From Promethearchaeati archaeon (GTDB lineage Archaea; Asgardarchaeota; Heimdallarchaeia; Heimdallarchaeales; Heimdallarchaeaceae), in NCBI GenBank assembly GCA_013166775.1, contig JABLTJ010000013.1:1-64000 (forward strand): a DNA stretch of 64,000 nt. The letters are read 5' to 3'. Position numbers and translations under genes: made by a program. This document shows, in pieces, positions 3,901 through 42,755 of this stretch. The first letter of the stretch is position 1; each line of letters starts with the position of its first letter. The notes under the pieces are model-generated. The model ran no database searches. It was not told the origin of the DNA and was given only the letters and a program-made list of their open reading frames with translations.

Positions 3901-3978
3901 ATTTTTTCAATATCTTTTTTCACAACTTAATTTGATTAGATATTTAAGTATCCATATCCAGATTTCTTCAGAAGGAAG

Positions 3979-25784: not shown

Positions 25785-28700
25785 GTGTGGATATTGTATA
25801 AGAACTCAATTGAGGTTATAGGCGCTCAAGAGAACAATTTACGTAATATCTCAGTTGAGATTCCACATGATAAGTTAATTGTTATTTCGGGCATCTCTGG
25901 AAGTGGAAAGAGTTCACTTGCTTTTGATACAATTTATCTCGAAGCACAGAGAAGATATATGGAAACTTTATCAGCTTATGCAAGGCAATTTATAGGTAAT
26001 TTTGACAGACCGCAAGTTGAGCATATTGATGGTTTACGACCAACAATTTCTATTGATCAGAAAACTATATCGAGGAATCCAAGAAGTACAGTTGGTACCC
26101 TCACTGAGATTTATGATTACATGAGAGTACTTTTTGCAAGAGTAGGAATACCTCATTGTCCAGATTGTAAAATTAGGATTGAAGCACAACCTTCAGATCA
26201 AGTAATTGAACAGATATTTGCATCTTTTGAAGGACAAAGGATCAAAATAGTTGCTCCAATTTTCGAGAAGAGGAAAGGTGAGTATAGAAAGGAATTAGCT
26301 CAATGGAAAGAAGATGGTTATGTCAGATTAATAGTTGATGGTAAAGAAGTGAACTTAGATGATGAAGAAGTTCAATTAGAGAGATATGTTGCTCATGATT
26401 TAGAAATTATTGTTGACAGGAATCGATGTGAAAGAAAGAATGAGCCTTTGATTCTTGATAGTGTCAACCTAGCACTCGAGCTCTCAAAAGGTAGGATTAA
26501 GATAATTGGAGAGAAAGAAGAAAGAGTATACTCAACAAAACTAGTCTGTCCAGAGTGCGGATTAGCTGTAAATGAATTCAATCCTAGAGACTTCTCGCAC
26601 AATACAGCTGTTGGTGCTTGTAAGAGATGTAAAGGACTAGGACAAATTGCTGAGATATCTCCTCAAAAGTTCATAGTTAATCATGATCTTTCAATCGCTG
26701 ATGGTGCCATTGCGACAATGACGAAGAACAAAAAACACATCACATATGCTTCTATAGGTTTGAAAAATATCAATGTAATTGTCCAAGAACACGGATATGA
26801 TATTAACACACCAATAAAGGATTTAACTGAAGATCAACTCGATAAACTACTTTATGGAACAGGTAGACAAGAATATCACTTGACATGGAACTGGGATAGT
26901 CAAGCAGCTAAATGGAGTGGGAAGGGTGAGTGGACCACTAGATGGAGAGGATTAATCCCAGCAACAATGGAAGCTTACTACAGACTTACGTCAGAACATA
27001 GGAAGCAAATATTAGAAGAGCTCATGGAACAAACAAAATGCCCTGATTGTAAGGGAATGAGACTCAAGCCCGAGAGTTTAGCTGTTTTGTTCAATGGGAA
27101 AAATATCTCTGAACTCAATAGATTAGAAATTGATGAGTGTTTAAAATTCTTCGAGGGAGTTAAGCTTACTAAAGAAGAGGAGATAATAGGGAAACCTCTA
27201 CTAAAAGAAATTAAAAATAGATTATCATTCTTGTTGAAAGTAGGATTACATTATCTAACAATGAACAGAGCTGCGAGTGAGTTGAGCGGAGGAGAAGCTC
27301 AAAGAACAAGATTAGCAACTCAAATAGGTTCAAAGCTACAAGGAGTAAATTATGTCTTAGATGAGCCTTCAATAGGATTAGCTAATAGAGACAACCAAAA
27401 GCTGTTGAGTTCTCTGAAAACTCTCAGAGATGGAGGGAATACAGTCATAGTTGTTGAACATGATGAAGATACTCTTCGTTCAGCTGATCTGCTGTTAGAT
27501 TTAGGTCCAGGAGCAGGAGATGATGGTGGAGAAGTACTATTCCTCATGGATCCAAAGGAATTATCTGAAAAAAATTCAAAGAATTCTATCACTGCAAAAT
27601 ATCTATTGGGATTAGATGAGATTGAGATACCTAAGAAAAGGAGAACAAGTAAAAAATTCCTTACTCTCAAAGGTGCATCTCATAATAACTTAAAGCAGAT
27701 AGATGTAAGCATCCCTTTAGGAACATTCACATGTGTTACTGGAGTTTCAGGAAGTGGTAAGTCTTCTTTAGTTGCAGATACACTTTATCCAATTCTAGTA
27801 AATAAACTTCATAATGGAAAACAAAAACCAGGTCGATACAAGAGTATAGAAGGCTCAGAGAACATTGACAAAGTTGTCGTAATTGATCAATCACCTATAG
27901 GTAGAACGTCAAGATCTAATCCTGCAACCTATACAAAAGTAATGGATCATATTAGAGATTTGTTTGCAACTATTCCAACAGCTAAGATTAGAGGGTATTC
28001 CAAAACTAGATTCAGTTTTAATACAAAATTAGGTAGATGTGAAGCGTGTAAAGGGCATGGTTATAATAAGATAGAAATGACCCTTCTTCCCGACGTTGAA
28101 GTTGAATGTGAAATTTGCAAAAGCAAAAGATATGATGATGAGACTCTGAAAATCAAATATCAAGGTCATTCTATAGCTGACATACTTAACATGACTGTAA
28201 GTAGAGCAATGGGAGTGTTTGAAAATATACCTAAAATTCAGCGTATTTTGAAGACTTTAATTGATGTCGGATTGGATTATATACAGCTCGGGCAATCAAG
28301 TACAACTATATCTGGTGGAGAAGCCCAGAGGATAAAACTTAGCAGAGAACTATCAAAGATATCTACAGGTAATACCCTGTATATCCTCGATGAATCGACA
28401 ACGGGATTAAGTTTTGAAGATATTAAAAAGCTGTTAAATGTTCTTCAAAGATTGGTTGATAAGGGAAATACAGTATTAATTATAGAGCATAATTTAGATG
28501 TCATCAAAGTAGCTGATTTTGTCATAGATTTAGGTCCTGATGGCGGAGAAGAAAATGGTGGGTATCTAGTAGATTTAGGTACTCCAGAAGAAATTCTTGA
28601 AAATGAGCTTTCATATACTGGACAAGCGTTGAAGAAAGTACTAACTGATGATTACATAGAGGAAGAAGTAGAACCTATAAAAATAGAAAAAGAGGATTTA

Positions 28701-31544
28701 GATCCATCAAAATATCTGTATGTGAGAGGAGCAACAAAGAATAATCTCAAAAGTATAAATTTAGACATTCCAAAAGAAAAACTTGTTGTAATCACAGGAC
28801 CTAGCGGTTCAGGTAAAAGCTCTTTAGCTATAGATACTCTTTTTGCAGAAGGGCAAAGAAGGTTTGTAGAATCATTAAGTAGTTATGCACGGCAGTTTCT
28901 TACAAAAGCTGAAAGAGCTGATGTTGATGATATAATTGGTTTGACACCCTCAATAGCTATAGATCAGCATTCTATTTCTAAGAATCCAAGATCAATTGTT
29001 GCAACTACTACAGAAATTTATGATTATCTCCGACTTCTTTATGCAAAAGTGGGTATACCTCATTGTCCAGTATGCAATATTGTTTTAAAAAATAGAACGT
29101 CGGATGAAATAGCTAAATTAGTACTAAAGGAATATGAATCTGAAAACATAATTATCGCATCTTCTTTATCAAATGGCGAAGAAGTGAATATTAAAGAAAC
29201 AATCAAGGAAATTCAAAAACAAGGATATAATAGAATTGTAATAGATGGGAAAGACTATCTAGTAGATGAACAGATAAAAGTAAAAAAATCTTCCTCATTA
29301 TCTGTAGTAATTGATAGAATAGAAGTGAATAAAGAAAACATATCTAGGACAGCTGAATCAATAGAAGCTGCAGTAAGTGTTGGCAAAGGGAGAGTTGAGA
29401 TCTATTATAATGGAGAGAGAAGTATTTATTCAATAAATGCTGAATGTATAGATCATGAATATGAAGCTCCATCTGAAATCCATCCAAGACTTTTCAGCTT
29501 TAATCACTATTCAGGAGCATGCTCAAATTGCACAGGGTTGGGAACAATAAGAAAATTTGATATAAGAAAGATAGTCAAGAATTGGGATAAATCGATAAGT
29601 CAAGGCGCTATAGGTCCATATTCTTCTCAAAGAATGTCTAATCCTAACTCTTGGAGAAGAGCAATGCTTGATTCTGTAGCTAAACATTTCGATTTCACAA
29701 TGGATACACCAATGAAAGATTTAACTCCTCAACAACTGGATGGTTTATTTTACGGCTCAAAAGGTAAAGATGTATCAATTAGAATCATTCGAGAAAGAGA
29801 AAAATCTTCTTCAGAATATACTAGAAGTGGACCATGGGAAGGACTCATTCAAAGATGGGTTACTTGGATGACCACTGAAACTGAATCACGATACATTAGT
29901 CAAAGAAAAGAACAGATGCATCAATATTATAGCGAGTATAAATGCACAGATTGTAATGGACGAAAATTAAAAACAGAAGTTCTTGCGATAACAGTAGGAG
30001 ATAAATCGATAAACGATCTTTCTACCTATGCAGTTGATGATTTTCTTGACTTCCTTAATACTTTGAAGCTTAATAAAAGAAGAGCAAAGATAGCGGATAG
30101 GATTATAGTTGAGTTAAAGAAAAGAGCTGAATATCTAACTGATGTGGGTTTGAGTTATCTTACTCTAGATAGACGTTCAAGCACTTTATCTAATGGAGAA
30201 GCCCAAAGAATAAGACTCGCTTCACAGATTGGGAGTGGACTTATAGGTGTCACTTATGTCCTAGATGAACCAACAATAGGTCTACACCCAAGAGATATAG
30301 ATAAGCTGCTTACAACATTGAAGAGACTAAGAGATAATGGAAATCATGTTATCGTTGTTGAGCATGATGACATCATAATTAAAGAATCAGATCACATGAT
30401 TGAACTTGGCCCACTAGGTGGAGATCAAGGGGGGGATGTAGTTGCTGAAGGGAATACTACTAAACTTCTACAGCGAGAAGATTCTTTGACTGCAAGCTAT
30501 CTTTCTGGTTCAAAGAAAATTAAAACACCTAAGAATCGAAGGAAAGCGGAATCTTCTATTGAATTAAAAGGAGCATCTCAAAACAATTTGAAACAAATAG
30601 ATGTTGAATTCGGAAAAGGAATATTTACTGCAGTAACTGGTGTCAGTGGGGCAGGTAAATCGTCTCTTGTAATTGACACACTTCAGAAAGGACTTGAAAA
30701 GAATATTCAAGGCAAAAGAACAGAAGTTGGTAAATATAAGTCACTTACAAATTTTGAAGGTATAAACAAAGTAATAGTCGTTGATCAATCCTCTTTGAGT
30801 AAATCAAGAAGGTCAAATCCATCTACGTATTTAGGAGTACAAGATAATATAAGAGATTTCTTTGCTCTTTTACCAGAATCAAAAGCTAGAGGTTTCACAC
30901 CAGGTCATTTCAGTTTCAACACATACAAAGGTCAATGTAATGAGTGTCGAGGATTAGGACATAAAAGAATAGAGTTGCTCTTTCTTTCAGATGTTTGGGT
31001 TTTATGCCCGAGTTGTAAAGGGAAGAAATACAAAAAACCTATTCTAACAGCAAGATATAGAAAAAAATCTATTGCTGATATTTTAGAGATGACTATAGAG
31101 GAAGCATGTGAACTATTTTCGAACATAGAAAATATACGTAGACCTCTTCAATTAGCAGTAGATGTAGGGCTAGGATATCTACGAATGGGACAACCTACAA
31201 CTACAATAAGTGGAGGGGAAGCAGAAAGGTTGAAAATAGCTAGAGAATTGTCAAAGAAAACACATGATAAAAGTATCTATTTATTGGATGAACCTTCACA
31301 AGGATTACACTTCTACGATATTGAAAAACTTGTTAATATTCTGCATCGTTTAGCAGATGAAGGAAACTCAATTGTTGTTATTGATCATAATATGGACATA
31401 ATAAAGAACGCAGATAGGATTATAGATTTAGGTCCTGAAGGTGGGACTAGAAATGGTGGATATTTAGTAGCTAAAGGAACACCTGAGGAGATTATCAATC
31501 AACAGGAAGGGTATACATGGGAGTATCTTAAGCAAGCTTCCTAG
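25785..31544 (+). CDS. uvrA: Excinuclease ABC subunit A, tandem double-length form (two complete UvrA units)
   Basis: Four Walker A motifs (GISGSGKS, GVSGSGKS, GPSGSGKS, GVSGAGKS), four signature motifs, E.QRR..E.LS.YARQF twice, CxxC zinc modules. Confidence 0.95.
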   Translation: MWILYKNSIEVIGAQENNLRNISVEIPHDKLIVISGISGSGKSSLAFDTIYLEAQRRYMETLSAYARQFIGNFDRPQVEHIDGLRPTISIDQKTISRNPRSTVGTLTEIYDYMRVLFARVGIPHCPDCKIRIEAQPSDQVIEQIFASFEGQRIKIVAPIFEKRKGEYRKELAQWKEDGYVRLIVDGKEVNLDDEEVQLERYVAHDLEIIVDRNRCERKNEPLILDSVNLALELSKGRIKIIGEKEERVYSTKLVCPECGLAVNEFNPRDFSHNTAVGACKRCKGLGQIAEISPQKFIVNHDLSIADGAIATMTKNKKHITYASIGLKNINVIVQEHGYDINTPIKDLTEDQLDKLLYGTGRQEYHLTWNWDSQAAKWSGKGEWTTRWRGLIPATMEAYYRLTSEHRKQILEELMEQTKCPDCKGMRLKPESLAVLFNGKNISELNRLEIDECLKFFEGVKLTKEEEIIGKPLLKEIKNRLSFLLKVGLHYLTMNRAASELSGGEAQRTRLATQIGSKLQGVNYVLDEPSIGLANRDNQKLLSSLKTLRDGGNTVIVVEHDEDTLRSADLLLDLGPGAGDDGGEVLFLMDPKELSEKNSKNSITAKYLLGLDEIEIPKKRRTSKKFLTLKGASHNNLKQIDVSIPLGTFTCVTGVSGSGKSSLVADTLYPILVNKLHNGKQKPGRYKSIEGSENIDKVVVIDQSPIGRTSRSNPATYTKVMDHIRDLFATIPTAKIRGYSKTRFSFNTKLGRCEACKGHGYNKIEMTLLPDVEVECEICKSKRYDDETLKIKYQGHSIADILNMTVSRAMGVFENIPKIQRILKTLIDVGLDYIQLGQSSTTISGGEAQRIKLSRELSKISTGNTLYILDESTTGLSFEDIKKLLNVLQRLVDKGNTVLIIEHNLDVIKVADFVIDLGPDGGEENGGYLVDLGTPEEILENELSYTGQALKKVLTDDYIEEEVEPIKIEKEDLDPSKYLYVRGATKNNLKSINLDIPKEKLVVITGPSGSGKSSLAIDTLFAEGQRRFVESLSSYARQFLTKAERADVDDIIGLTPSIAIDQHSISKNPRSIVATTTEIYDYLRLLYAKVGIPHCPVCNIVLKNRTSDEIAKLVLKEYESENIIIASSLSNGEEVNIKETIKEIQKQGYNRIVIDGKDYLVDEQIKVKKSSSLSVVIDRIEVNKENISRTAESIEAAVSVGKGRVEIYYNGERSIYSINAECIDHEYEAPSEIHPRLFSFNHYSGACSNCTGLGTIRKFDIRKIVKNWDKSISQGAIGPYSSQRMSNPNSWRRAMLDSVAKHFDFTMDTPMKDLTPQQLDGLFYGSKGKDVSIRIIREREKSSSEYTRSGPWEGLIQRWVTWMTTETESRYISQRKEQMHQYYSEYKCTDCNGRKLKTEVLAITVGDKSINDLSTYAVDDFLDFLNTLKLNKRRAKIADRIIVELKKRAEYLTDVGLSYLTLDRRSSTLSNGEAQRIRLASQIGSGLIGVTYVLDEPTIGLHPRDIDKLLTTLKRLRDNGNHVIVVEHDDIIIKESDHMIELGPLGGDQGGDVVAEGNTTKLLQREDSLTASYLSGSKKIKTPKNRRKAESSIELKGASQNNLKQIDVEFGKGIFTAVTGVSGAGKSSLVIDTLQKGLEKNIQGKRTEVGKYKSLTNFEGINKVIVVDQSSLSKSRRSNPSTYLGVQDNIRDFFALLPESKARGFTPGHFSFNTYKGQCNECRGLGHKRIELLFLSDVWVLCPSCKGKKYKKPILTARYRKKSIADILEMTIEEACELFSNIENIRRPLQLAVDVGLGYLRMGQPTTTISGGEAERLKIARELSKKTHDKSIYLLDEPSQGLHFYDIEKLVNILHRLADEGNSIVVIDHNMDIIKNADRIIDLGPEGGTRNGGYLVAKGTPEEIINQQEGYTWEYLKQAS

Positions 31545-31699: not shown

Positions 31700-33691
31700 A
31701 TGGATCGCAAAAAAAAAAATAGAGTTAAATGCTCTTTTCTGATTATTTTATTCTTCAATTTCAGTTATTCAACAAGCTTTAATTCTAAAAGTTTTAACTA
31801 TCCTCAACTTGTTCTAAAAACTACAGGAGGGGGGATTTTACCAGACTATGCAATGTTTATTACACAGAATTTAAGAGATATTGGAATATATGTTAAAATC
31901 CAAATTGAAGAATGGTCGGTTCTTTATGGTAAGGAGCTTTCCCCATGCAATTATGATTTAGCAATTATTAAGATGAATTTTAATCAATTTTATCCCCATC
32001 CCTCTATATATTTCTCCAATAATGGTTCAAAAAACCTTCTTTTTAAAAATACAGATTTGCCTTATTGGAGGTTTAATGAAGAAATGCTTACTTTGATGAA
32101 TCAAGTAGATGATGATGAAAGACAGCAGATCTATTATGATTGGCAGCAGCAGCTAATGGATAAGATTCTACCTTGTCTTCCTCTTTTCAATTATCAGAAG
32201 CAAATTTCAACATGGTCTACTTTGGAAGGATATAACGTCAATTGGTCTATTTCGAATAATATGCCTTATCTCTCATTTAATGAAACTCATGAGGGACAAG
32301 AGAGCACAGATGAATTCATATTCAGTGATTCAAGTTTTCAAAATCTTAATCCTTTAATGTATACTGATGATTCAAGTGTGAATTTAGCCAGCTTTCTTAC
32401 TGAACAAATTATTCAAATTTCTCCTGAAAATGAGATACTAAAAACTGGATTAATTTATGATTGGGAAGAGGTGAACGAGAGCTATTATCGTTTCTTTGTA
32501 AGAGATAATATCTATTGGAATCCTTCATACAACATAACAGAAAGAACTGAAAACTCACCTCCTTTAAGTATTCTCACTACTCCACTGATGAGTGGTTTAA
32601 AAGGTGATATTAGCAATGGAACTAATCAAAAAGTAACTGCAAAAGATGTTGCTTTTACACTTCTTTCTTTAGCCACACAAAATTCAAGTAAATATTACGA
32701 TCAATATAATTGGATTAGAAGAATAGATATGAATTCAACAAATGATTTAATTTTTTCAATTTTGGTTGATTCCAATCCTCAAACGAAAGAACTAGATTTG
32801 TTTCAAGGTATTCTTTTCAATTTCCTTTTCATGTTGAATGTTCCTTGTTTACCAGAATTTTTCTTAAATTCTAGTGATGAAACAATATTTTATACTTCTG
32901 GTAGCATACCAGTGAAAGGACTTTACAATGCAAAGAATTCAGTTCAGTGGAACACATATAGTTGTTCAGCTTTTGGCTGTGGGAAGTATATGTTGGATTA
33001 TACTCATAGAAATGTAGAGACTCTTCTTCAAGCAAATCCTAATTGGTTCGGAATAGGTCCTCGAGAGGGTAATAATCAGTCTCTATCTATAGAAAAGGTA
33101 AAAATAAGAGATATTTCAGATGATTTCACTTCTTTAGAGGAATTTAAAGCTGGAAAGCTCGATTTGATGGATGTCACTTCTTTTAAATCTGAAAGTGTAA
33201 AAATGCAAATTGACGATAGATTCGAAATTCATGACACCCTCTCAAGTGATATGACATGTCTTGTTTTCAATTTAGATAGACCTTTTATTGGAGGTGCTGA
33301 CAATTATGTTTTTATGGATACCCCTGGTAAAGAAGAATATACAAAAGGTGTTGCTATTCGTAAAGCAATCTGTTATGCGATAGATCGAGAAGAGATGAAT
33401 GAGATTTTACATGATGGAGATTACATAATTTCTCATAATCCTATCCCACCATTTTTCTCATTCTACTATTATGACAATATTATCAAGTACTATAGAGATT
33501 TAGATGCTGCTTACGAATGGTTGAGGGCTTCTGGACGTGGTGTGTATCTTACTATATATTATCCCGAAGATCATAGTGATGCTTTCTTTATTCTAACATG
33601 GATTATCGTTGTCGCTGCTAGTTTACAAGTACTAGTTATAATTTTGAATCGTTTAAGCAAATTAAATAGGAGAAATAAAAAATATGTGTAG
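31700..33691 (+). CDS. Family 5 (Opp/Dpp-like) solute-binding protein, circularly permuted, C-terminal TM anchor
   Basis: LNP, VTAKDVAFT, GCGKY, FKAGKLD, LVFN, IRKAI.YAIDR; the L.DIGI.V.I..EW and R..IY...Q..L...P.LPL blocks lie at the N-terminus. Confidence 0.78.
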   Translation: MDRKKKNRVKCSFLIILFFNFSYSTSFNSKSFNYPQLVLKTTGGGILPDYAMFITQNLRDIGIYVKIQIEEWSVLYGKELSPCNYDLAIIKMNFNQFYPHPSIYFSNNGSKNLLFKNTDLPYWRFNEEMLTLMNQVDDDERQQIYYDWQQQLMDKILPCLPLFNYQKQISTWSTLEGYNVNWSISNNMPYLSFNETHEGQESTDEFIFSDSSFQNLNPLMYTDDSSVNLASFLTEQIIQISPENEILKTGLIYDWEEVNESYYRFFVRDNIYWNPSYNITERTENSPPLSILTTPLMSGLKGDISNGTNQKVTAKDVAFTLLSLATQNSSKYYDQYNWIRRIDMNSTNDLIFSILVDSNPQTKELDLFQGILFNFLFMLNVPCLPEFFLNSSDETIFYTSGSIPVKGLYNAKNSVQWNTYSCSAFGCGKYMLDYTHRNVETLLQANPNWFGIGPREGNNQSLSIEKVKIRDISDDFTSLEEFKAGKLDLMDVTSFKSESVKMQIDDRFEIHDTLSSDMTCLVFNLDRPFIGGADNYVFMDTPGKEEYTKGVAIRKAICYAIDREEMNEILHDGDYIISHNPIPPFFSFYYYDNIIKYYRDLDAAYEWLRASGRGVYLTIYYPEDHSDAFFILTWIIVVAASLQVLVIILNRLSKLNRRNKKYV

Positions 33692-33774
33692 AATATTACA
33701 CAAAAATAGTTATCTTTGTATAAAATATAAGATATTTGAGAAATTTGTAACTAAATGATATAAATGTGGTAAGT

Positions 33775-34272
33775 ATGGATAAGGGAAGAATAAATGAAGT
33801 AGGAGAGTTATTGGAAGTTGCCCCTTCTAATTTAAAAGAATCTAAATTTAAAGTATTAGTAAAACGACTTACTTATCCTCTGGCCCAGATTGCATTTTTT
33901 ATATTTTCTATTATTTCAGGAATTTTACTTGGATATTGGGAAAGTCAAATACAAATAGGTTACCCTTTTAATCAAATCACAAGAATTTATAGAGCAGGGA
34001 TTCCGACTCTCTTGATTATCCATAGTGGAAATACGCTATTTTCGATAAAAAATCGCAAGAAATATCGTATTTCAAATTTCCTAACAGGATCTATAGTTAT
34101 TATTAATCTGATACTGTCTGCGATTAGTTTCTTTTTTATCTATAAATTTATGGATGCAAATCTAGGTCTTAGTGCTTCAGTTCGTTATGGTACTTTCCAT
34201 AAGAATATAGATAAAATAATTATTTCAAAGATTTCTTCAACTATGAAAGAGGTGTATTATTTAGAAGTGTGA
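33775..34272 (+). CDS. 3-TM membrane protein, putative radical-SAM substrate A (C-terminal RYG motif)
   Basis: Paralog of the next two genes; INEVGxLLE N-terminus, GYWE..GYP loop, SVRYGTF; ATG 33775 chosen by alignment. Confidence 0.7.
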   Translation: MDKGRINEVGELLEVAPSNLKESKFKVLVKRLTYPLAQIAFFIFSIISGILLGYWESQIQIGYPFNQITRIYRAGIPTLLIIHSGNTLFSIKNRKKYRISNFLTGSIVIINLILSAISFFFIYKFMDANLGLSASVRYGTFHKNIDKIIISKISSTMKEVYYLEV

Positions 34273-34278
34273 TTTAAT

Positions 34279-34734
34279 ATGAACGATGAGAAAATAAACG
34301 AAGTTGGAAACTTGTTGGAAATAGATTCTTCAGATATTCAAGAATCAAAACAAAAAAAAATCTGGAAAAAACTAATTTTCCCTGTTGTTCAAATTTCAAC
34401 TATCGTCCTTTCAGCAATCTTAGGTGCTTTAATGGGATACTGGGAAAATAACAGATCATCAGGTTATCCTGCTTCATGGCTTTACCCAAGGATTTTCTTT
34501 TTAGGTCCGATAGCGCTTTTTGGTTTCATTGTAGGAAACATATCAATATCCTCAAAGAACTATAAAAAAATTGGATTAAGAGGTGTTTATGCAGCTATTA
34601 TTATTTTTATGAATATATTGATCTCTGTAGCAAGCTTAGCTTTTACTTATATGGCAATTCGAACTACACCACCAGTGATTCTAGGTAGTTATGTAATGTA
34701 TGGTACTTATAAAAAGCCAAAATATGGAAAATAA
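34279..34734 (+). CDS. 3-TM membrane protein, putative radical-SAM substrate B (C-terminal MYG motif)
   Basis: INEVGNLLEIDSSDIQESK, GYWE..SGYP, SSKNYKK, PPVILGSYVMYGTY. Confidence 0.75.
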   Translation: MNDEKINEVGNLLEIDSSDIQESKQKKIWKKLIFPVVQISTIVLSAILGALMGYWENNRSSGYPASWLYPRIFFLGPIALFGFIVGNISISSKNYKKIGLRGVYAAIIIFMNILISVASLAFTYMAIRTTPPVILGSYVMYGTYKKPKYGK

Positions 34735-34744
34735 GTGGTTGAAT

Positions 34745-35212
34745 TTGAATAAAGAGAAATTAGATGAAACTGGAAAAGTGTTGAATGTTGATTCTTCAGA
34801 TATTCAAAAATCAAAATCAAAACAAATCTTGAAGAAACTTATTTTTCCTCTTGTTCAGGTTTCAACTATCATTCTTTCAGCAACCTCAGGAGCTTTACTG
34901 GGATATTTGGAGAAAAAAGAACCATCAGGTTATCCATATGCATGGGATTTCCCGAAGATTTACTTTTTTGGCCCAATGGCACTTCTAGGTTTTAGTACAG
35001 GGAATATATTAATATCTTCAAAAAACTATAAGAAAACCGGATTAAGAGGTACTTCTGCTAGCATTATTGTTTTTCTAAGTATAGTTATCTCAGTAGCAAG
35101 CTTAGTTTTTATTTATATGGCTGTTCAAAATCCACCACCTCCTCTTCAAGGATACGTTCCGCCATTTAATGTTTCAATAGATTATGATACCTTTAGAAAG
35201 AGAAATTTATAA
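34745..35212 (+). CDS. 3-TM membrane protein, paralog C (degenerate DYD motif)
   Basis: TTG 34745 gives MNKEKLDETGKVLNVDSSDIQKSK, aligning with A and B; ends SIDYDTFRK. Confidence 0.7.
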   Translation: MNKEKLDETGKVLNVDSSDIQKSKSKQILKKLIFPLVQVSTIILSATSGALLGYLEKKEPSGYPYAWDFPKIYFFGPMALLGFSTGNILISSKNYKKTGLRGTSASIIVFLSIVISVASLVFIYMAVQNPPPPLQGYVPPFNVSIDYDTFRKRNL

Positions 35213-35222
35213 TGTGATTAAT

Positions 35223-36287
35223 ATGAAATATAATCTTGATTGCGCAGTTTGGGAATTAACTCTTGAATGTAATCTTAAGTGTAAACATTGTGGTTCTAGT
35301 GCAGGAAAGGCTAGAAAAAACGAGTTAACTACTCAAGAATGCTTCAATCTTTGCGAAGATTTATCAGAAGTTGGTTGTAGAGAAGTTAGTTTAATGGGTG
35401 GGGAACCTTTTGTAAGAGAAGATTGGAATGAAATAGCCTGGTGTGTTAAAGATTTAGGGATGGATTTAGCTTTTGTAAGTAATGGAATACTCATTCCTCA
35501 AGTAATAGAGAAGCTTAATCTATTAGAACCTGTAGTAGTTGGAGTTTCTCTTGATGGTGTAAAAGAAACACATGATTATATTAGAAGAAAAGGATCTTAT
35601 GACGCAGCTCATCAAGCTATAGAACTACTCTTGGAAAATGATATTCAAACGACTGTAATAACCACAATAAGTAAAACAAATTTCAAAGAATTATTGGAAT
35701 TGAAGAAACTCATTTATGGAAAAGGAATAAACTGGCAAATTCAAGTATGTATGCCATTTGGATATTTTGATCCATCTTTAGTAATTAGTCAAGAAGAATA
35801 TTATGCTTCTGCTATGTTTATTGTTTCAGAACGGATAAAAAACAAATTCAAAGACATGCCTGTGGTAGGAGCACATTGTTATGGTTATTTCTCTCATTTA
35901 CTTCCAAGAAACAATCGATGGGATGGTTGTACTGCAGGAAGATCCACAGTTGGTTTAACTTCAGAAGGTTCAGTAGTTGGGTGTTTATCAATGGGGAATA
36001 ACCAATTTATTGAAGGTAATGTGAGAGATAGAAGTTTCAAAGAGATCTGGGAAGATCCTAATTCTTTTGCTTATAATAGAAATTTCAAACGAGATGATTT
36101 CGGTGAAAATTGCATTGATTGTTTTTACGGAGAAAAATGTAAAGGTGGATGTAACTCAACATCTTATCACCTTACAAAGAAATTTCATAACACACCTTTA
36201 TGTTTAAGAAAAATAGAAGAAAAGTTGTTTGATGTGAAGATTCCTAAGAAAGAAAGATCCAATGTCCAAGAAGTGAAATCATTATGA
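35223..36287 (+). CDS. Radical SAM/SPASM protein, PlpX-like peptide/protein maturase (splicease-like)
   Basis: AVWELTLECNLKCKHCGS (CxxxCxxC), GGEP, VSLDG..ETHD, WQIQ, WDGCTAG...G..GC.S, EGNVR, CxxC-x5-CxGGC...C SPASM; ATG 35223 follows a GTGAT SD. Confidence 0.88.
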   Translation: MKYNLDCAVWELTLECNLKCKHCGSSAGKARKNELTTQECFNLCEDLSEVGCREVSLMGGEPFVREDWNEIAWCVKDLGMDLAFVSNGILIPQVIEKLNLLEPVVVGVSLDGVKETHDYIRRKGSYDAAHQAIELLLENDIQTTVITTISKTNFKELLELKKLIYGKGINWQIQVCMPFGYFDPSLVISQEEYYASAMFIVSERIKNKFKDMPVVGAHCYGYFSHLLPRNNRWDGCTAGRSTVGLTSEGSVVGCLSMGNNQFIEGNVRDRSFKEIWEDPNSFAYNRNFKRDDFGENCIDCFYGEKCKGGCNSTSYHLTKKFHNTPLCLRKIEEKLFDVKIPKKERSNVQEVKSL

Positions 36288-37570
36288 TAAAATTGAATCT
36301 AGGTTGTGGTATTTTTTACAAACCAGGATATATAAACATTGATCTTGTTGAAGATAAAATTGCTGATCAGATTGCTGACGTTACCAACCTTCCTTATGAG
36401 GAAAATAGTGTAGATCTAATAGAAGCATCTCATATAATTGAACATTTTGATGTAAATCAAGTTCCTTTTGTTCTTTCTGAATGGTACAGAATTTTGAAAC
36501 CAGGTGGGAAACTAGAGATTGAAATACCAAATTTGTTAAAATCTGTAATTAAACTGAAATTAAGTAAGTACAGAAAACAATTATTAACTTTGAAATTTCT
36601 GTTTGGAGTAGATTATAGAGGGAATATTCACAAGATAGGTTTTACAAGATTATTCTTAAAAAAATCTCTTTCCAGAACAGGTTTCAAAAAAATTAGAAGA
36701 AAGAAACAAAGAAGCTTCAAAGAAGAAAGAGGTATGAGATACCAGGCAAGCAAACCATTAGATGCTGATTTATCAAAAAAGAAACATTTTATTACTACTT
36801 TCCGTTCAGAAATCAACTCTAATTTTGAAATAAAAGAGACTTTATTCTATGAAGTTTTAGAGAACAACTGTTTCTTATCGCTTTTTAATATTCTACCTGA
36901 AAATATTCAGAAATTTTTCAACACATTTAGGATAACTAATTTCTGTGCTTCTCTATCAATAATTCATCCTAAATTATCTAAAATCTTTCTCGAGATATTT
37001 CCTGAAAATCAGACAAATGAAATCAACAAAGAAGTATTAGACTATCTTGATGAAATTAAATTTCAATCTCTACTTCTAACTGATTGGATAAAGTGGAGAA
37101 AAGATCAATTTAATTTTCCCATTTCTATAACCAAATTCTTCAATCACTGGACATGGAAAATTAATCAAATGTTAAACAAAAAAACTGATTTTAAGAAAAT
37201 GTTGAGCTACTTAACGTCTTTAGAACAAAACTCTAATGAATTTTTCTCAATTGAGATTATTAATATTCAATCACTCAGACTAGCTAATCAAGGAATAAGA
37301 GCTTTTGAAAAGGAGATTTTTGTAGAAGCTAAAAAGCTTCTTGAAGAGAGTCTTAGAATGAATCCTTCAAATATTGAAGCAAATCTAAATCTTGCACGTC
37401 TTCTTAGAAAACTAGATCACAATCCAAATCAAATATCTAACTTATATGAATTTGTTCTGTCTGATTTATCTAATAGGAGAATTAAAAGGAAAATAAGGAA
37501 AGAGTATCAATTGATTCTCCTTAACAAGGAGAAAAAAGAAGAATTGAGTCCAATTCAATTGAGAAGTTAA
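36284..37570 (+). CDS. Class I SAM-dependent methyltransferase fused to a C-terminal helical/TPR domain
   Basis: KLNLGCG, YINID, SVD.I.ASH.IEH, EW.RILKPGG; TPR-like A..LLEESLRMNPSN.EA.LNLA; ATGA overlap with the rSAM gene. Confidence 0.8.
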   Translation: MIKLNLGCGIFYKPGYINIDLVEDKIADQIADVTNLPYEENSVDLIEASHIIEHFDVNQVPFVLSEWYRILKPGGKLEIEIPNLLKSVIKLKLSKYRKQLLTLKFLFGVDYRGNIHKIGFTRLFLKKSLSRTGFKKIRRKKQRSFKEERGMRYQASKPLDADLSKKKHFITTFRSEINSNFEIKETLFYEVLENNCFLSLFNILPENIQKFFNTFRITNFCASLSIIHPKLSKIFLEIFPENQTNEINKEVLDYLDEIKFQSLLLTDWIKWRKDQFNFPISITKFFNHWTWKINQMLNKKTDFKKMLSYLTSLEQNSNEFFSIEIINIQSLRLANQGIRAFEKEIFVEAKKLLEESLRMNPSNIEANLNLARLLRKLDHNPNQISNLYEFVLSDLSNRRIKRKIRKEYQLILLNKEKKEELSPIQLRS

Positions 37571-37625
37571 AATTTATTTTTTAAATCACAAAAGATATCA
37601 ATGAGTAAGGAGAATTTTAAAAAGA

Positions 37626-38873
37626 ATGACTATAAAGAACTTTGGAGTTACGAAAGAATCAGCTGAAAAACTAGAAACTGAAGATGATTTAGCAGTTTTT
37701 CGCGATAAATTTTACATACCTGAAAACACAATTTACATGAACGGTAATTCTTTAGGATTACTACCTAAGAAGGGAGAAAAAACTCTCTTACGAGTTTTAG
37801 AAGAATGGAAAACTGGTGGAGTCCAAGGTTGGGTAAATATTGAGAAACCTTGGTTTTTTTTTGCTGAGAAATTGGGTGAAAAAGCTGCTTTTCTAGTTGG
37901 AGCTAAATCTTCTGAAGTTATCGCAACAGGTACTACTACAATTAACATTCATTCATTGATCAGTACATTTTATGAACCTGAAGGGAAGAAAACTAAGATT
38001 CTAGCTGATGTATTGAATTTTCCTACAGATATTTATGCCCTTCAAAGTCAAGTTAAACTAAAAGGACTAAATCCTGAAGAACACTTGGTTCTAGTTAAAA
38101 GCAAAGATGGAAGATTCTTAGATGAGCAAACTATTGTCGATGCCATGACTGATGAAATAGCTATTATTCTGTTGCCATCAGCTCTGTTTAGAAGTGGTCA
38201 ACTCTTAGATATGAAATACTTAACTGAAGAAGCTCATAAAAGAGGAATTTTAATCGGATGGGACTGTTCTCATTCAGTTGGAGTTGTTCCCCATTATTTT
38301 GATGAATGGGGAGTTGATTTCGCAGTCTGGTGTAGTTACAAATATCTCAATGCGGGTCCAGGTGCAAGTGCATTTCTTTATATCAACGAGAAACACTTTA
38401 CCAAAGAAGCTGCATTATCAGGTTGGTTTGGTTATGTAAAAGAGAAACAATTTGAGTTGAACTTACATTTTGAACAAGCGAAAAATGCAGGAGGGTGGCA
38501 GATATCATCCCCATCAATTTTAGGTTCAGCAGCACTTGAAGGAGCATTAGATCTTATATTAGAAGCAGGAATAGATGAAATTAGAGAAAAATCATTGAAG
38601 ATGACTTCCTATATGATTTTCCTTGTTGATGAATTGCTTTCTGGAGAGCCATATAACTTCTCTATTGGAACACCGAGAGAAAAGGAGAGAAGAGGAGGTC
38701 ATGTAGCTTTAGAGCACAAAGAAGCATACAAAATACATGAAGAATTACTAAAGAAAAATGTAGTACATGATTTCCGTCCTCCGAACATTGTTCGTATCAC
38801 TCCATCAGCTCTCTACAATACTTATACAGAGATATGGGAAGTAATTTCCATCATAAAGAGTCTGTTTGATTGA
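37626..38873 (+). CDS. kynU: Kynureninase
   Basis: YMNGNSLGL, FPTD.Y, WDCSHSVG, WCSYKYLNAGPG (PLP Lys), GWFG, RGGHV, DFR.P. Confidence 0.93.
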   Translation: MTIKNFGVTKESAEKLETEDDLAVFRDKFYIPENTIYMNGNSLGLLPKKGEKTLLRVLEEWKTGGVQGWVNIEKPWFFFAEKLGEKAAFLVGAKSSEVIATGTTTINIHSLISTFYEPEGKKTKILADVLNFPTDIYALQSQVKLKGLNPEEHLVLVKSKDGRFLDEQTIVDAMTDEIAIILLPSALFRSGQLLDMKYLTEEAHKRGILIGWDCSHSVGVVPHYFDEWGVDFAVWCSYKYLNAGPGASAFLYINEKHFTKEAALSGWFGYVKEKQFELNLHFEQAKNAGGWQISSPSILGSAALEGALDLILEAGIDEIREKSLKMTSYMIFLVDELLSGEPYNFSIGTPREKERRGGHVALEHKEAYKIHEELLKKNVVHDFRPPNIVRITPSALYNTYTEIWEVISIIKSLFD

Positions 38874-38941: not shown

Positions 38942-39922
38942 ATGTTAGCTGTCGAAACCTCAAAGTTAACAAAAGATTATAAAACGAAGGAAGCATTCCT
39001 TAGAGCTGTAGATACTCTGGATTTAGCAATAGAAGAATCAGAAATTTACAGCTTATTAGGTCCAAACGGAGCAGGGAAAACTACTAGTGTTAGGATATTA
39101 GCTGGTCTCCTTAGACCCACTGACGGAAATGCAAAAGTACTCGGTTTAGATATAATCAAAGATGCCCAGGAAATAAGAAGTAATGTTGGTTTGTTAACAG
39201 AAACTCCTGCTTTGTATGAACGTTTAACAGTCCGTCGGAATCTTGAATTTATAGCAGATTTGTATGATGTTCCAAAAGAGGAAGTTAAACCAAGGATTGA
39301 AGAGATTATTGACCTTTTTGAGATATCAGAAAAAATAGATGAACCAGCAGGTGCCCTTTCTAAAGGTATGAAACAAAAAGTAGCTATAGCTAGAGCAATG
39401 TTTCATGACCCCAAAATCATCTTTCTAGATGAACCAACAGCATCATTAGCACCTGAATCAGCAAAGATAGTAAGAGAGCAGATTCAGAAACTTGCTAAAA
39501 CAGAACACAGAACTTTTTTCATTTGTACACATAATCTGTTTGAAGCTGAAATCCTTTCTTCAAGAGTAGGGATAATTAATAGAGGGAGTCTTGTTGCAGA
39601 AGGAACACCAGCAGAATTGCGAGATTTACACAAAGATCAGCGAATTACAGTTTTTCGTTTCACAAAATGGGATAATGCTCTAAAGAATTTCTTTGAAGAT
39701 TTAGATTTAGAACTTATAGAAATTGACCAAAATCAAAAATCTATTTCAGCAATCATTCCTCAAGTAGAAAAACAAACTCCTACCATTATAGAGAATCTTG
39801 TCAAACAGAAGTATTCTATGGTAGAAGTACGTCATGAATATCCCACACTGGAAAAAATATACTTGGAGTTAGTTGAGACGGAGAGTATTCCAAGAGAAGA
39901 AGAGGAGGAGATAGAAGAATGA
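38942..39922 (+). CDS. ABC transporter ATP-binding protein (exporter type)
   Basis: GPNGAGKT, LSKGM, FLDEPT, CTH. Confidence 0.92.
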   Translation: MLAVETSKLTKDYKTKEAFLRAVDTLDLAIEESEIYSLLGPNGAGKTTSVRILAGLLRPTDGNAKVLGLDIIKDAQEIRSNVGLLTETPALYERLTVRRNLEFIADLYDVPKEEVKPRIEEIIDLFEISEKIDEPAGALSKGMKQKVAIARAMFHDPKIIFLDEPTASLAPESAKIVREQIQKLAKTEHRTFFICTHNLFEAEILSSRVGIINRGSLVAEGTPAELRDLHKDQRITVFRFTKWDNALKNFFEDLDLELIEIDQNQKSISAIIPQVEKQTPTIIENLVKQKYSMVEVRHEYPTLEKIYLELVETESIPREEEEEIEE

Positions 39923-40737
39923 AATGGAGAAGAATTTGGGCGATGGTTAAAAAGGACATAAGAGAGTTTGTCAAATCTAAATACGTATTATCAGTAATTA
40001 TCTTGATGCCTTTGTTTTTTGCGATATTATTTCCGATTACTTCAGTTCTTCCAATTGCAAAACTTGATCCTGCAGAATTTGGAGATGAATCAATTGGTGG
40101 ATTCGTAGAAACTATGTTCAACAAGGTTATAGATAATTGGGAAACTCTTCATCCTCAAGTCCAAACCCTTGTTTTATTGTCGTATGCAATGTTTATAGCT
40201 GTGCTTTTACTACCTATTATCATTCCAGCTGTTACAGCTTCTGAAACAGTTGTAGGAGAAAAAGAAAGGAAAACAATGGAAGCTATTCTAGCATCTCCTA
40301 TGTCTGAATCCGAAATTGTAATCGGAAAGATTATTTCTTCCTTCTTACCTTCAGTAATAGGAACTCTGGTTGCATCAATTGCTTACATGATATTCATTGA
40401 TATTTTACTCTATCCACATCTAGGATTTATACTGTTTCCTGATTTACTCTCTATGGTGTTCGTATTTATCATAAGCCCATTAGTTTCAATAATTAGTGTA
40501 GAATTGATGATTATGGTTTCAACTAGAGTAACAAGTGTAAGAGATGCTTATCAAATAGGTTCACTAGTTGTTTTGCCATTGATAGGACTTATAGTTTTCG
40601 AGATGCTTGGATTGTTATTAAACTCTGTTGCAACTCTGTTAGGAAGTATAGCTGTATTGATAATAATTATAATTGGTCTATTCAAAATAGCTACAAGTAT
40701 ATTCGACAGAGAAAGGGCAATTGTAAAAATGGTTTAA
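39919..40737 (+). CDS. ABC-2 type permease
   Basis: 6 TM; GEKERKTMEAIL.SP...I..GK motif; ATGA overlap with the ATPase. Confidence 0.88.
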   Translation: MKWRRIWAMVKKDIREFVKSKYVLSVIILMPLFFAILFPITSVLPIAKLDPAEFGDESIGGFVETMFNKVIDNWETLHPQVQTLVLLSYAMFIAVLLLPIIIPAVTASETVVGEKERKTMEAILASPMSESEIVIGKIISSFLPSVIGTLVASIAYMIFIDILLYPHLGFILFPDLLSMVFVFIISPLVSIISVELMIMVSTRVTSVRDAYQIGSLVVLPLIGLIVFEMLGLLLNSVATLLGSIAVLIIIIIGLFKIATSIFDRERAIVKMV

Positions 40738-40763: not shown

Positions 40764-42755
40764 CTATTTCTTCTTCTTTACTATAACTGAAATTACTACA
40801 ATAGCTATCATAATTACATAAGACTCTAAAGCTGATTTATTTGGATTATCTGGATTCAGTGGATCATAACTATTTTCTACCTCTTCTCCGTCAGATATAC
40901 CATCACCATCAGTATCATTGTTGTTTGGATCTGTGAGATGGATTAAAACCTCATCACCATCAGTTAAACCATCAGCATCTGAATCTTTTTCTGTTGGATC
41001 AGTTTCATAATCATTAACTTCGTCTCCATCTAAGAGTCCGTCTAAATCAGTATCATTGTTGTTTGGATTAGTAAAATAGACTTGCACCTCTTCACCGTCT
41101 TTCAATCCGTCTTCATCTGTGTCATCATTCTTTGGGTCTGTTTCATATTCATTAACTTCTTCGCCATCTTTTAATCCATCACTATCAGTATCACTTTTCA
41201 TTGGATGTGTATTAAGAGCATATTCCTCAATGTTAGTTAAATCATCGTCATCTGGATCTTCAGCAGAATCATCATTCCATGGATCAAGGTTCTTTTCAAC
41301 TTCCCATTTCGGGTCCATTCCATCGTCATCTGTGTCTTCCAAAGGATATAAATCTGAAGTTCCTGCAGTTCCTCCGATTGGATAATCTCCTGTACCTGAC
41401 CAATCATCCCAATAATTTCCTTTCTCTGTACTTGTATTATACCATATATTATCTAGTCCATCATCTTTTACCTGTGTTCCACCATTGTTATTTTCAATGA
41501 AGATATTTCTATAGATTTTATTGTTGTCTGAAGTATCTCCCCAACCGGCAAGGTTAATCCCATGCTCAGTACAGTATTTGATTACATTCTGATAAATTTC
41601 ACAATAATTTGATTCAGCAAAATACATTCCATATTGAGTACTGGTTTCAATAAAATTATTTCTTATTATTATATACTCAGACATCGGAAGATACATTCCA
41701 TATTCCCAATTATCTTTACATGTATTGTTATCTATAATACAGTAAGTAGACAAATCAACATAGATTCCTATATTTTGTCCTTGGCAAAGATTATTTCGGA
41801 TAATAACATTACTAGAGAATTCATAAACATATATCCCAAAATCTCCATCTTCATCATATTGATTGTTTTCTATGATAACATTTGTTGATTTATGCACAGT
41901 AATAGTTCTATCTTCTAGTTTATTATGAGCAATATTTACATTATTAGAACCCGTTACTTCAATACCACAATAATTATTTTCAATAATCACATCATTACAA
42001 TAGAAAAGAAATATTCCCTTAGAAGGAGATTTCATCTCTTGATTTATTATTTGAATATCACTACAATCAATTAGAAAAATCTGACCATAATCTGAAGCTG
42101 AAAAAGTTAGACTTGAATTACCAACAAACCAAGCTATAGGTTTTCCATTTAGAGTATTATCGTTGATTTGCATTGTCGAAACTTCAGATAAATCAACATC
42201 ATACATGATACTAATTCCACCTTGAGTAAATTCATTATCTTCTATAACTACAAAGGGTGAATACTCAATATGTATCCCACCCCATTCATTGTTTTCCAGT
42301 GTATTATTAGCAATTATTGCATAAGATGCACTATACAAAATGATTCCTCCGTGTGTATCCCTTATTGTGTTTTCCAGAATCTGGACAGTATTGAGTCCTA
42401 CTGATGAAATATAAATTGCAATTGTAAAGCCTTCTATCAAACAATTTTGAATTACAAAATTTTTAGTAGTAGATGTTATCTCTATTGCAGTACCTGAATC
42501 AGCAGAGATATGATAATCCTCTATTCTGTAGGGATTACCTGGAGATCCATCTCCTGGGAATCCATATGATATGAAATCAGCATCGCTATCAATTTCAATC
42601 GGCAAATAAATTGTATATGTAAGATTCGAGGAATTATTTTCTTCCAGATAGGTTGCTAGATTTGTTCGTGATAAAAGTGATAGATATAACATGAATAACA
42701 AAAAAACCAAAAAAATCGATAGTACTTTTTTTCCATTATTTCTTTTATTTTTCAT
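40764..42755 (-). CDS. Surface protein: right-handed beta-helix (NosD/CASH) plus bacterial TSP3-like Ca-binding repeats, TM anchor
   Basis: PI.I..D.DF...GDGS..NPY.I, GI.L....N.I.NN repeats, GNYWDDW, DTDxDGLxDGxE repeats, TM plus KKKK. Confidence 0.82.
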   Translation of the reverse strand: MKNKRNNGKKVLSIFLVFLLFMLYLSLLSRTNLATYLEENNSSNLTYTIYLPIEIDSDADFISYGFPGDGSPGNPYRIEDYHISADSGTAIEITSTTKNFVIQNCLIEGFTIAIYISSVGLNTVQILENTIRDTHGGIILYSASYAIIANNTLENNEWGGIHIEYSPFVVIEDNEFTQGGISIMYDVDLSEVSTMQINDNTLNGKPIAWFVGNSSLTFSASDYGQIFLIDCSDIQIINQEMKSPSKGIFLFYCNDVIIENNYCGIEVTGSNNVNIAHNKLEDRTITVHKSTNVIIENNQYDEDGDFGIYVYEFSSNVIIRNNLCQGQNIGIYVDLSTYCIIDNNTCKDNWEYGMYLPMSEYIIIRNNFIETSTQYGMYFAESNYCEIYQNVIKYCTEHGINLAGWGDTSDNNKIYRNIFIENNNGGTQVKDDGLDNIWYNTSTEKGNYWDDWSGTGDYPIGGTAGTSDLYPLEDTDDDGMDPKWEVEKNLDPWNDDSAEDPDDDDLTNIEEYALNTHPMKSDTDSDGLKDGEEVNEYETDPKNDDTDEDGLKDGEEVQVYFTNPNNNDTDLDGLLDGDEVNDYETDPTEKDSDADGLTDGDEVLIHLTDPNNNDTDGDGISDGEEVENSYDPLNPDNPNKSALESYVIMIAIVVISVIVKKKK
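40850..41340 (-). repeat. About 7 acidic coding repeats (DTDxDGLxDGxEV...TDP), roughly 23 aa / 69 nt period
   Basis: Visible in the translation of 40764..42755; boundaries approximate. Confidence 0.8.

Follow-up and report, generated by a model that had tools for sequence, protein, structure and literature searches.

Three small membrane proteins encoded beside a radical S-adenosylmethionine (SAM) enzyme in an Asgard archaeon are probably modified by that enzyme at a tyrosine in their tails. The DNA concerned, called the window below, comprises 64,000 nucleotides (positions 1 to 64,000 of the forward strand of contig JABLTJ010000013.1, assembly GCA_013166775.1) of a Promethearchaeati archaeon of the Heimdallarchaeaceae. 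An earlier reading of the letters alone (the original prediction) had taken the host to be Asgard-like, and it is indeed a Heimdall-group Asgard archaeon. The cassette occupies positions 33775-37570 and consists of five open reading frames (ORFs) on the + strand, which code for three paralogous proteins with three transmembrane (TM) helices each (A, B and C), a radical SAM/SPASM enzyme and a methyltransferase fused to a TPR-like domain (MT-TPR). The favoured chemistry is excision of a tyramine unit, the reaction of the spliceases, to which a probability of roughly 0.45 is given. The case is built on gene order, the family placement of the enzyme, co-conservation of its partners and their invariant residues, all of which are observed.

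In the proposed mechanism, A, B and C would serve as substrates of the radical SAM/SPASM enzyme. Each would consist of a cytoplasmic leader-like helix, three TM helices, a Tyr-Pro motif in the first outer loop and a tail of the type x-Y-[G/D]-[T/V]-[Y/F]. The enzyme would bind the substrates in the cytoplasm and modify the tail Tyr, perhaps by excising tyramine, before TM3 and the tail insert in the manner of a tail-anchored protein. MT-TPR would be a third component that adds a methyl group, either to the product or to the tyrosine of Tyr-Pro, or that holds the hydrophobic precursor via its TPR-like domain. If this is true, radical SAM backbone editing would extend from secreted peptides to integral membrane proteins as a new class of substrates, with MT-TPR as an obligatory component of a new kind, and native backbone editing of membrane proteins would exist in archaea near the eukaryotic ancestor. 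The question would then arise of how an Fe-S enzyme of the cytoplasm can act on a segment that finally lies outside the cell. Even if no splicing takes place, the cassette would represent a conserved, so far uncharacterised Tyr-directed radical SAM modification in Asgard archaea, Thermoplasmatota, DPANN archaea and several bacterial phyla.

Gene order of the cassette

The cluster is as tight and codirectional as had been claimed. A (165 amino acids; 33775..34272, +) and B (151 amino acids; 34279..34734, +) are separated by 6 nt, B and C (162 amino acids; 34724..35212, +) overlap by 11 nt, and a gap of 10 nt precedes the gene of the radical SAM/SPASM enzyme, the putative maturase (354 amino acids; 35223..36287, +). 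The stop codon of the latter overlaps with the start codon of the MT-TPR gene (36284..37570, +) in an ATGA at 36284-36287. The longest ORF for A begins upstream of its ATG at 33775, with GTG at 33766; the ATG of C at 34724 agrees with the public gene call P0004. A genome-wide profile search of the source genome (3.85 Mb, 88.7 % complete) yielded only this one cassette.

Family placement of the radical SAM enzyme

The enzyme contains the CX3CX2C motif and a full SPASM cysteine set (Pfam Radical_SAM, 1e-22; SPASM, 2e-8), and C16, C20 and C23 as well as seven further cysteines are invariant in 35 homologues. Its highest NCBIfam scores are to TIGR03913 (199.1 bits) and to TIGR04103, the PlpX family (194.9 bits, over profile positions 4-345 of 412), and the next family follows at 146 bits. 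The same ranking was obtained with ten relatives of the enzyme. Searching the whole genome with TIGR04103 returned the same single match, below the cut-off. Among solved structures compared by sequence, only distant SPASM enzymes were found, such as SkfB (5e-16) and PqqE (4e-11).

Two trees were calculated, a quick one of 74 rows and a careful one of 36 rows (IQ-TREE). The reference enzymes were found by tblastn against plasmids and included Nostoc TIGR04103, Burkholderia and Azospirillum TIGR03913, an Aureibacter relative, MftC, TIGR04347 and TIGR04133; AhbD-like Asgard proteins were added, and the sampling of outgroups was limited. In the careful tree, the family of the window's enzyme (support 88/94) is joined on a single long branch (support 100/98) by TIGR04103, TIGR03913, TIGR04133 and an Agathobacter enzyme, and MftC, the AhbD-like proteins, TIGR04347 and a Bacillus enzyme lie outside this splicease-containing superclade. 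The quick tree agrees, with a Shimodaira-Hasegawa-like approximate likelihood ratio (SH-aLRT) support of 97 for the superclade. Eight family-invariant residues point in the same direction: L14, G24, R31, Q172, Q174, G221, W233 and G253, located in the motifs HCGS..AG..R, WQxQ, GY and WxGC, occur in all five splicease-family references and in none or one of the ten outgroup sequences. Judged by these comparisons, the enzyme is a sister family within the splicease-containing superclade and not a member of TIGR04103 or TIGR03913.

The original prediction had placed the enzyme with the PlpX-type spliceases. What stands of this is the neighbourhood, as TIGR03913 and TIGR04103 are the nearest families and share its superclade. 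Membership does not stand: the scores lie below both cut-offs, the C-terminal extension of these families is missing, and neither a PlpY/RRE (RRE, precursor recognition element), Nif11 or NHLP partner nor a small helper gene is present at the locus, nor does the enzyme have an N-terminal RRE. The enzyme motifs quoted for the family are present, the sole deviation being three residues instead of two before the last G-C.

An alternative in which the enzyme makes haem or another cofactor, like AhbC/AhbD, NirJ, PqqE or MftC, and stands beside membrane proteins by chance is already largely refuted and has very little probability left. It could draw on weak scores to MftC (140.2 bits), AhbD (131), NirJ (129), AhbC (112) and PqqE (81), but all of these are exceeded by the splicease scores and remain far under the respective cut-offs (265 for MftC, 381-650 for the other four). 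MftC and the AhbD-like proteins are excluded from the superclade at 100/98, and NirJ and PqqE, which are in neither tree, were compared by NCBIfam score only. The enzyme does not cluster with haem or cofactor enzymes, because both the trees and the NCBIfam scores favour the splicease families. No genes for haem, pyrroloquinoline quinone (PQQ) or mycofactocin were found near the cassette among the window's ORFs with Pfam and NCBIfam. The strict linkage of the enzyme to substrates and methyltransferase and its patchy distribution (see below) also speak against this alternative. An MftC-like action on the G-V-Y inside tails that read Y-G-V-Y was considered as well and rejected, since the motif does not lie at the C-terminus and the second aromatic residue varies.

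The small membrane proteins

A, B and C share 36-57 % identity and are thus paralogues, as had been proposed. An AlphaFold2 model of B, made with a 60-row alignment (mean predicted local distance difference test score, pLDDT, 86.6), starts with a short helix (residues 3-12), which is followed by long helices at 17-57, 72-98 and 102-128 and by a coil tail (129-151). None of the three proteins has a significant Pfam or NCBIfam match, a match of B to UriT (E 0.0014) being at chance level, and a direct homology search with B found just three close relatives. The substrate family was revealed only through the neighbourhoods of enzyme homologues combined with an iterated profile, to which A matches with E 1e-33. 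The resulting alignment (A3) holds 60 homologues from 30 loci with a mean column identity of 19 %.

Only three columns of A3 are invariant; by the residue numbers of B, these are Y63 and P64, in the loop that follows TM1, and Y141 in the tail. Over all 89 profile hits, the Tyr of Tyr-Pro is conserved in 98 % and the Pro in 91 %. The loop motif reads G-Y-P in A (33958..33966, computed from the ORF), B (34462..34470) and C (34928..34936, read directly and aligned). The tail motifs are, as originally read, V-R-Y-G-T-F in A (34180..34197), V-M-Y-G-T-Y in B (34693..34710) and I-D-Y-D-T-F in C (35177..35194), all on the + strand. In C, Gly is replaced by Asp through a single base change (GGT to GAT). 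The original prediction saw one converging tail motif in a five-gene cluster; the tail Tyr was well chosen, as it is invariant in the 60 homologues, but the Gly that follows varies (D, N, S, A or F), and a second invariant motif, Tyr-Pro, and the obligatory role of MT-TPR had been overlooked. Position 143, two residues after the tail Tyr, is Val or Thr, both β-branched, in at least 90 % of A3. The residue preceding the tail Tyr is highly variable among homologues, a trait shared with spliceotide precursors, and 8-27 residues separate the Tyr motif from the C-terminus. At the other end, a widespread helix motif, x-E-[IV]-G-x-x-L-x-V-x-x-x-D-[IL], resembles a leader; A has such a leader-like N-terminal helix, three TM helices and a long tail.

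Distribution and linkage

The enzyme has 657 homologues with 43-86 % identity, and scanning a single genome for each species gave 80 loci. Archaeal hosts are Asgard archaea of the Heimdall, Hod, Thor, Hel and Loki types, Thermoplasmatota, Undinarchaeota and Nanohaloarchaeota; bacterial hosts are Elusimicrobiota, Margulisiibacteriota, Nitrospiraceae, Smithellaceae and Geobacteraceae. Loci were grouped by the enzyme alone and the small proteins were counted afterwards. Twenty-eight species loci have an enzyme that is at least 50 % identical to that of the window, and 26 of these carry one to seven A/B/C homologues at a distance of at most 3 kb. One of the other two has three soluble peptides of 46-65 amino acids ending in PPxYGVY, and the last is a 1.1-kb contig without flank. 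It had been asked of the original prediction that radical SAM homologues in other Asgard genomes adjoin xYG-tailed proteins; they do, also in Thermoplasmatota. In 65 of 85 loci, the genes for MT-TPR and the enzyme are neighbours, truncated contigs accounting for most of the exceptions, and no other gene is conserved around the cassette across the loci compared.

Of 151 evenly sampled Asgard genomes, 23 contain the enzyme, 25 MT-TPR and 22 the two together, and only one of nine other genomes of the source's genus has the enzyme. The trio of substrates, enzyme and MT-TPR is an accessory system of patchy distribution and not a housekeeping one. Promethearchaeum syntrophicum MK-D1 (NZ_CP042905.2, 1573117-1586142; locus L013, 6001-9849) has a complete cassette, with an enzyme of 65 % identity and three substrates with Y-N, Y-D and Y-G tails. 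The gene order differs there: radical SAM enzyme, methyltransferase and then the substrates. Since this strain is cultured, the cassette is open to direct testing.

Sister subclades and a shared core

Relatives of the enzyme are accompanied by simpler proteins. In Thorarchaeota and other Asgard archaea these are bitopic and comprise a leader-like domain, one TM helix and a tail of about 25 residues. In Thermoplasmata they are soluble peptides of 57-85 amino acids, some with repeated cores and with two or three tandem radical SAM genes, and RiPP-like (RiPP, a peptide synthesized ribosomally and then modified post-translationally) soluble precursors with repeated cores such as AGTYYGTVSSKDVYKAGTYYGTISIRDF are found among the relatives. 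Such soluble natural substrates in Helarchaeota and Thermoplasmata make the system testable. The core of the sister subclades reads Y-x-P-G-[TS]-x-Y-[G/A/S/F]-[TS]-[VI]-S-x-x-D-F. Its two Tyr residues are 5-6 residues apart in the bitopic and soluble relatives, and the profile of the three-TM proteins aligns Tyr-Pro and the tail Tyr to these two. The distance between the two motifs is variable, at 25-80 residues, in the three-TM and Helarchaeota forms, and the Helarchaeota peptides have a hydrophilic linker where the three-TM proteins have a TM hairpin. Because the profile aligns both Tyr motifs to the sister core, the three-TM proteins look like a bipartite core whose halves have been separated by a TM hairpin.

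This bipartite core has no counterpart in described spliceotide precursors. Therefore, a different chemistry with the same enzyme and substrates is kept as a strong rival, somewhat behind tyramine excision in probability: a C-C or C-O cross-link, or another Tyr-centred change, that uses the tail Tyr together with Tyr-Pro, with the methyltransferase adding a further modification. Both invariant Tyr positions are on the same side of the membrane, their spacing of 5-6 residues in the bitopic and soluble relatives (Y-x-P-G-T-x-Y-[GASF]-[TS]-[VI]-S..D-F) is typical of macrocycles, and the three-TM form, seen as one core with a hairpin between its halves, fits as well. The Gly after Tyr is dispensable, and a β-branched residue at Y+2 is maintained. 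Cross-links are, moreover, the product of most characterised radical SAM/SPASM peptide maturases, among them PqqE, MftC, StrB and DarE and the triceptide and darobactin enzymes. On the other hand, spliceases, and not PqqE or MftC, are the characterised enzymes that come closest in score, tree and signature residues. A distance of 25-80 residues, as in the three-TM and Helarchaeota forms, would be unusual for a peptide cross-link, and the partners of the reference families share YG[V/T] without Tyr-Pro.

The latter point is also the best argument for tyramine excision as a conserved chemistry, because an X-Y-G site is common to the partners throughout the superclade. The Nif11 precursor of Nostoc ends in IALYGLPPELF (LYGL), TPYGVA, AMYGVA and PMYGVG occur in the DUF1843/DUF1842 proteins that accompany TIGR03913 enzymes, and a TIGR04133 lipoprotein has CEYGS immediately after its lipobox. 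The nearest bacterial relative of the enzyme, from Agathobacter (37 % identity), is directly preceded by an ORF without annotation that ends in VMYGTGVRM, and VMYGT is likewise found in B; this ORF is likely the precursor for the Agathobacter enzyme.

Some of these loci have further features. On the Agathobacter rectalis plasmid NZ_CP143948.1 (L087), the small ORF, ending in ...KNLFGPVMYGTGVRM, lies immediately upstream of the gene for the radical SAM enzyme (2992-4146), and a gene for a major facilitator superfamily (MFS) transporter follows downstream; the host is a human gut bacterium. On plasmid pAT1 of Aureibacter tunicatorum (L090, 2150-4920), three DUF1843 peptides, a TIGR03913-like radical SAM enzyme and a class I methyltransferase are encoded, and two of the three peptides read Y-A instead of Y-G. 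As this locus has both, partnership with a methyltransferase and replacement of the Gly also occur in the bacterial sister family. In two Thermoplasmatota loci (L037 and L038; e.g. L038 5609-5866), soluble precursors contain two or three core repeats (DVYKAGTYYGTVSSK...) and are flanked by three paralogous radical SAM/SPASM genes from different subclades.

Comparison with described systems and the weight of tyramine excision

Spliceases excise tyramine at XYG, and in binary systems a leader helix takes the place of the Y protein (PMC11414181). MYG and LYG are natural sites of PlpXY, and the engineered splice tags GGPIRPGYGLPI and GAVAAGYGVVFPG retain a Y-G-L or Y-G-V context (PMC10533398). Backbone splicing has so far been documented for bacterial peptides and engineered proteins (PMC11414181, PMC11626197, PMC10533398). 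According to PMC11626197, which refers to Scott et al. 2022 (Chem 8:2659), clusters for spliceotides are reportedly present in the genomes of bacteria and archaea. In line with the original prediction, no paper on archaeal substrates, on membrane-protein substrates or on tyramine/radical SAM splicing in Asgard archaea was found in a literature search, outside of which the paper of Scott et al. 2022 fell.

The cassette has much in common with the spliceotide systems, both type I (PlpX/PcpX with PlpY, TIGR04103) and the binary type II (RhaX/RcsX/RasX). The radical SAM/SPASM enzymes belong to one superclade and share the signature residues WQxQ, HCGS..AG..R and WxGC; the precursors are adjacent and multi-copy and show X-Tyr-Gly followed by Val or Thr with variable X (R-Y-G in A, M-Y-G in B), with the exception of D-Y-D in C. 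As in the binary systems, no separate Y protein is present, and the N-terminal helix of the precursors could act as leader helix. Unlike the spliceotide enzymes, to which it has about 33 % identity, the enzyme of the cassette has no C-terminal extension. Its precursors are integral membrane proteins and not Nif11/NHLP peptides, they have a second invariant Tyr-Pro motif and their Gly is often replaced; MT-TPR is obligatory, a protease or exporter is not part of the cassette, and the hosts are archaeal.

The TIGR03913 or 'GDL motif peptide-associated' maturases of Burkholderia and Azospirillum, on which no paper was found in the literature search, give the best NCBIfam score. Their partners are paralogous, in tandem and carry P/M-Y-G-V, and some are whole folded proteins: DUF1842 is a β-barrel (PMC10994174). 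That paper calls the function of the system unknown, and splicing is not mentioned in the papers on DUF1843. The Aureibacter variant resembles the cassette in having a class I methyltransferase after the enzyme. A, B and C differ from these partners in lacking a DUF1843 or DUF1842 domain and in the position of the Tyr-Gly site, which is C-terminal after a TM helix in the cassette and N-terminal to a helical domain in the TIGR03913 partners. With MftC and MftA, which has a C-terminal Gly-Val-Tyr, the cassette shares a radical SAM/SPASM enzyme and a Tyr beside a β-branched residue, and many cassette tails read Y-G-V-Y. However, the cassette motif is not C-terminal, its second aromatic position is often Phe, Ile or Ala, MftB is missing and MftC is outside by tree.

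Several observations weigh against tyramine excision. The enzyme reaches 27 % of the TIGR04103 cut-off (725) and about one third of that of TIGR03913 (591.75), and falls short of curated membership of either family; its matches end at 345/412 and 356/477, respectively, as it has no C-terminal extension. The Gly after the tail Tyr is conserved to about 65-80 % in the window's subclade, with recurring replacements by D or N; in loci L016, L018 and L019, some of which have a single paralogue, no copy has it, and sister subclades have S, A or F in its place. Copy C of the window itself reads D-Y-D, and because its orthologue on a related contig (P0003) has an identical IDYDTFRKRN, this is a maintained variant. 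RcsX, whose activity has been characterised, left a D-Y-G site unspliced (PMC11626197). Tyramine excision accounts neither for the invariant Tyr-Pro nor for MT-TPR as an obligatory partner. The last point is one of topology: Lys and Arg residues average 9.6 in the N-terminal flank plus loop 2 and 3.85 in loop 1 plus the tail, the former being larger in 32 of the 33 members with three TM helices, which would put the tail on the wrong side of the membrane for the enzyme.

Topology and predicted complex

By the positive-inside rule, these counts place the leader-like helix in the cytoplasm and both Tyr motifs outside, and the same charge and topology logic applies to the bitopic relatives. With the tail predicted outside and a cytoplasmic Fe-S enzyme, modification would have to precede insertion. 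This is plausible, since the last TM helix is located within about 25-45 residues of the C-terminus, like that of tail-anchored proteins, and would not emerge from the ribosome until translation terminates. A possible, albeit doubtful, outcome is that a reactive non-proteinogenic backbone element (an α-ketoamide resulting from tyramine excision or a Tyr-Tyr staple between the Tyr-Pro loop and the tail) is put on the tails before insertion and then displayed at the cell surface, with MT-TPR as modifier or holdase.

Prediction of a complex between the enzyme and B, with SAM and three [4Fe-4S] clusters included, gave scores of 0.47, 0.75 and 0.59 (median 0.59), against 0.20 for the highest-scoring of three controls. 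The runs share at least 86 % of contacts, and the pLDDT of the partner is at least 73. In the calibration, 58 of 80 solved complexes and two of 110 mismatched pairs attained the mark; scores of 0.60 or below belonged to seven of those 80 solved complexes and to both passing mismatches. As the present run used its own alignments and riding ligands, unlike the calibration, the model lends weak support to a complex of the enzyme and B.

These results bear on whether A, B and C are substrates at all. They might instead be accessory proteins (an anchor, a transporter or immunity proteins), the true substrate being encoded elsewhere or being a small molecule, which is considered unlikely. They are integral membrane proteins without a known RiPP leader family, the predicted topology holds the tail away from the enzyme, and the predicted complex adds little. 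An accessory role is, however, less easy to reconcile with relatives of the enzyme and MT-TPR that adjoin soluble peptides of 46-85 amino acids, some with repeated cores, in which only the two motifs are kept. The same is true of the one to seven tandem paralogues per locus, of conservation limited to three residues and a leader-like helix, and of a neighbourhood that offers no other conserved gene. Modification of the tail Tyr of A, B and C by the enzyme is thus retained as the preferred reading.

The methyltransferase-TPR partner

MT-TPR consists of a class I SAM methyltransferase domain (residues 1-159) and an all-helical, TPR-like domain (166-412), as found with Pfam (Methyltransf_11, 1e-9, and weak TPR matches) and in an AlphaFold2 model (pLDDT 93.9; predicted template modelling score, pTM, 0.90). 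Residues 1-159 superimpose on class I methyltransferases with a VIA-align Z of about 15 and a root mean square deviation (rmsd) of about 3 Å over about 148 residues, and residues 325-414 match a TPR protein with a Z of 12.6. The invariant residues of MT-TPR include the SAM-binding G-x-G and acidic positions. Foldseek and VIA-align matches of the model were to generic class I methyltransferases, including CgnL, LahSb and CypM of RiPP pathways, without preference; as modelled, the fold gives no readable substrate specificity. An Atlas search with the helical domain gave TPR-like leads only, under 0.9.

Neighbouring genes

Three flanking genes were considered as further parts of the cassette and rejected, as they are not kept beside it in other loci: an SBP_bac_5 lipoprotein-like gene (31700-33691), a kynureninase gene (37626-38873) and an ABC-2 transporter (38942-40737). 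A scan for promoters and terminators of the bacterial type, which is not applicable to archaea, performed no better than on shuffled sequences. The sequencing runs that contain 33700-37600 are of marine-sediment and cold-seep DNA only, with no RNA run listed.

The kynureninase, encoded on the + strand directly downstream of the cassette, is full-length and scores 367 bits to TIGR01814, above the cut-off. At 25785-31544 (+), a protein of 1919 amino acids is encoded that consists of two complete UvrA units in tandem, an ordinary UvrA having about 940 amino acids. Pfam assigns to it UvrA_inter and UvrA_DNA-bind stretches, two of each, and four sites of ABC ATPases. A surface protein of 663 amino acids is encoded at 40764-42755 (-). 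It combines NosD/right-handed β-helix repeats with a run of bacterial TSP3 repeats, which are Asp-rich and bind calcium, and ends in a C-terminal TM anchor.

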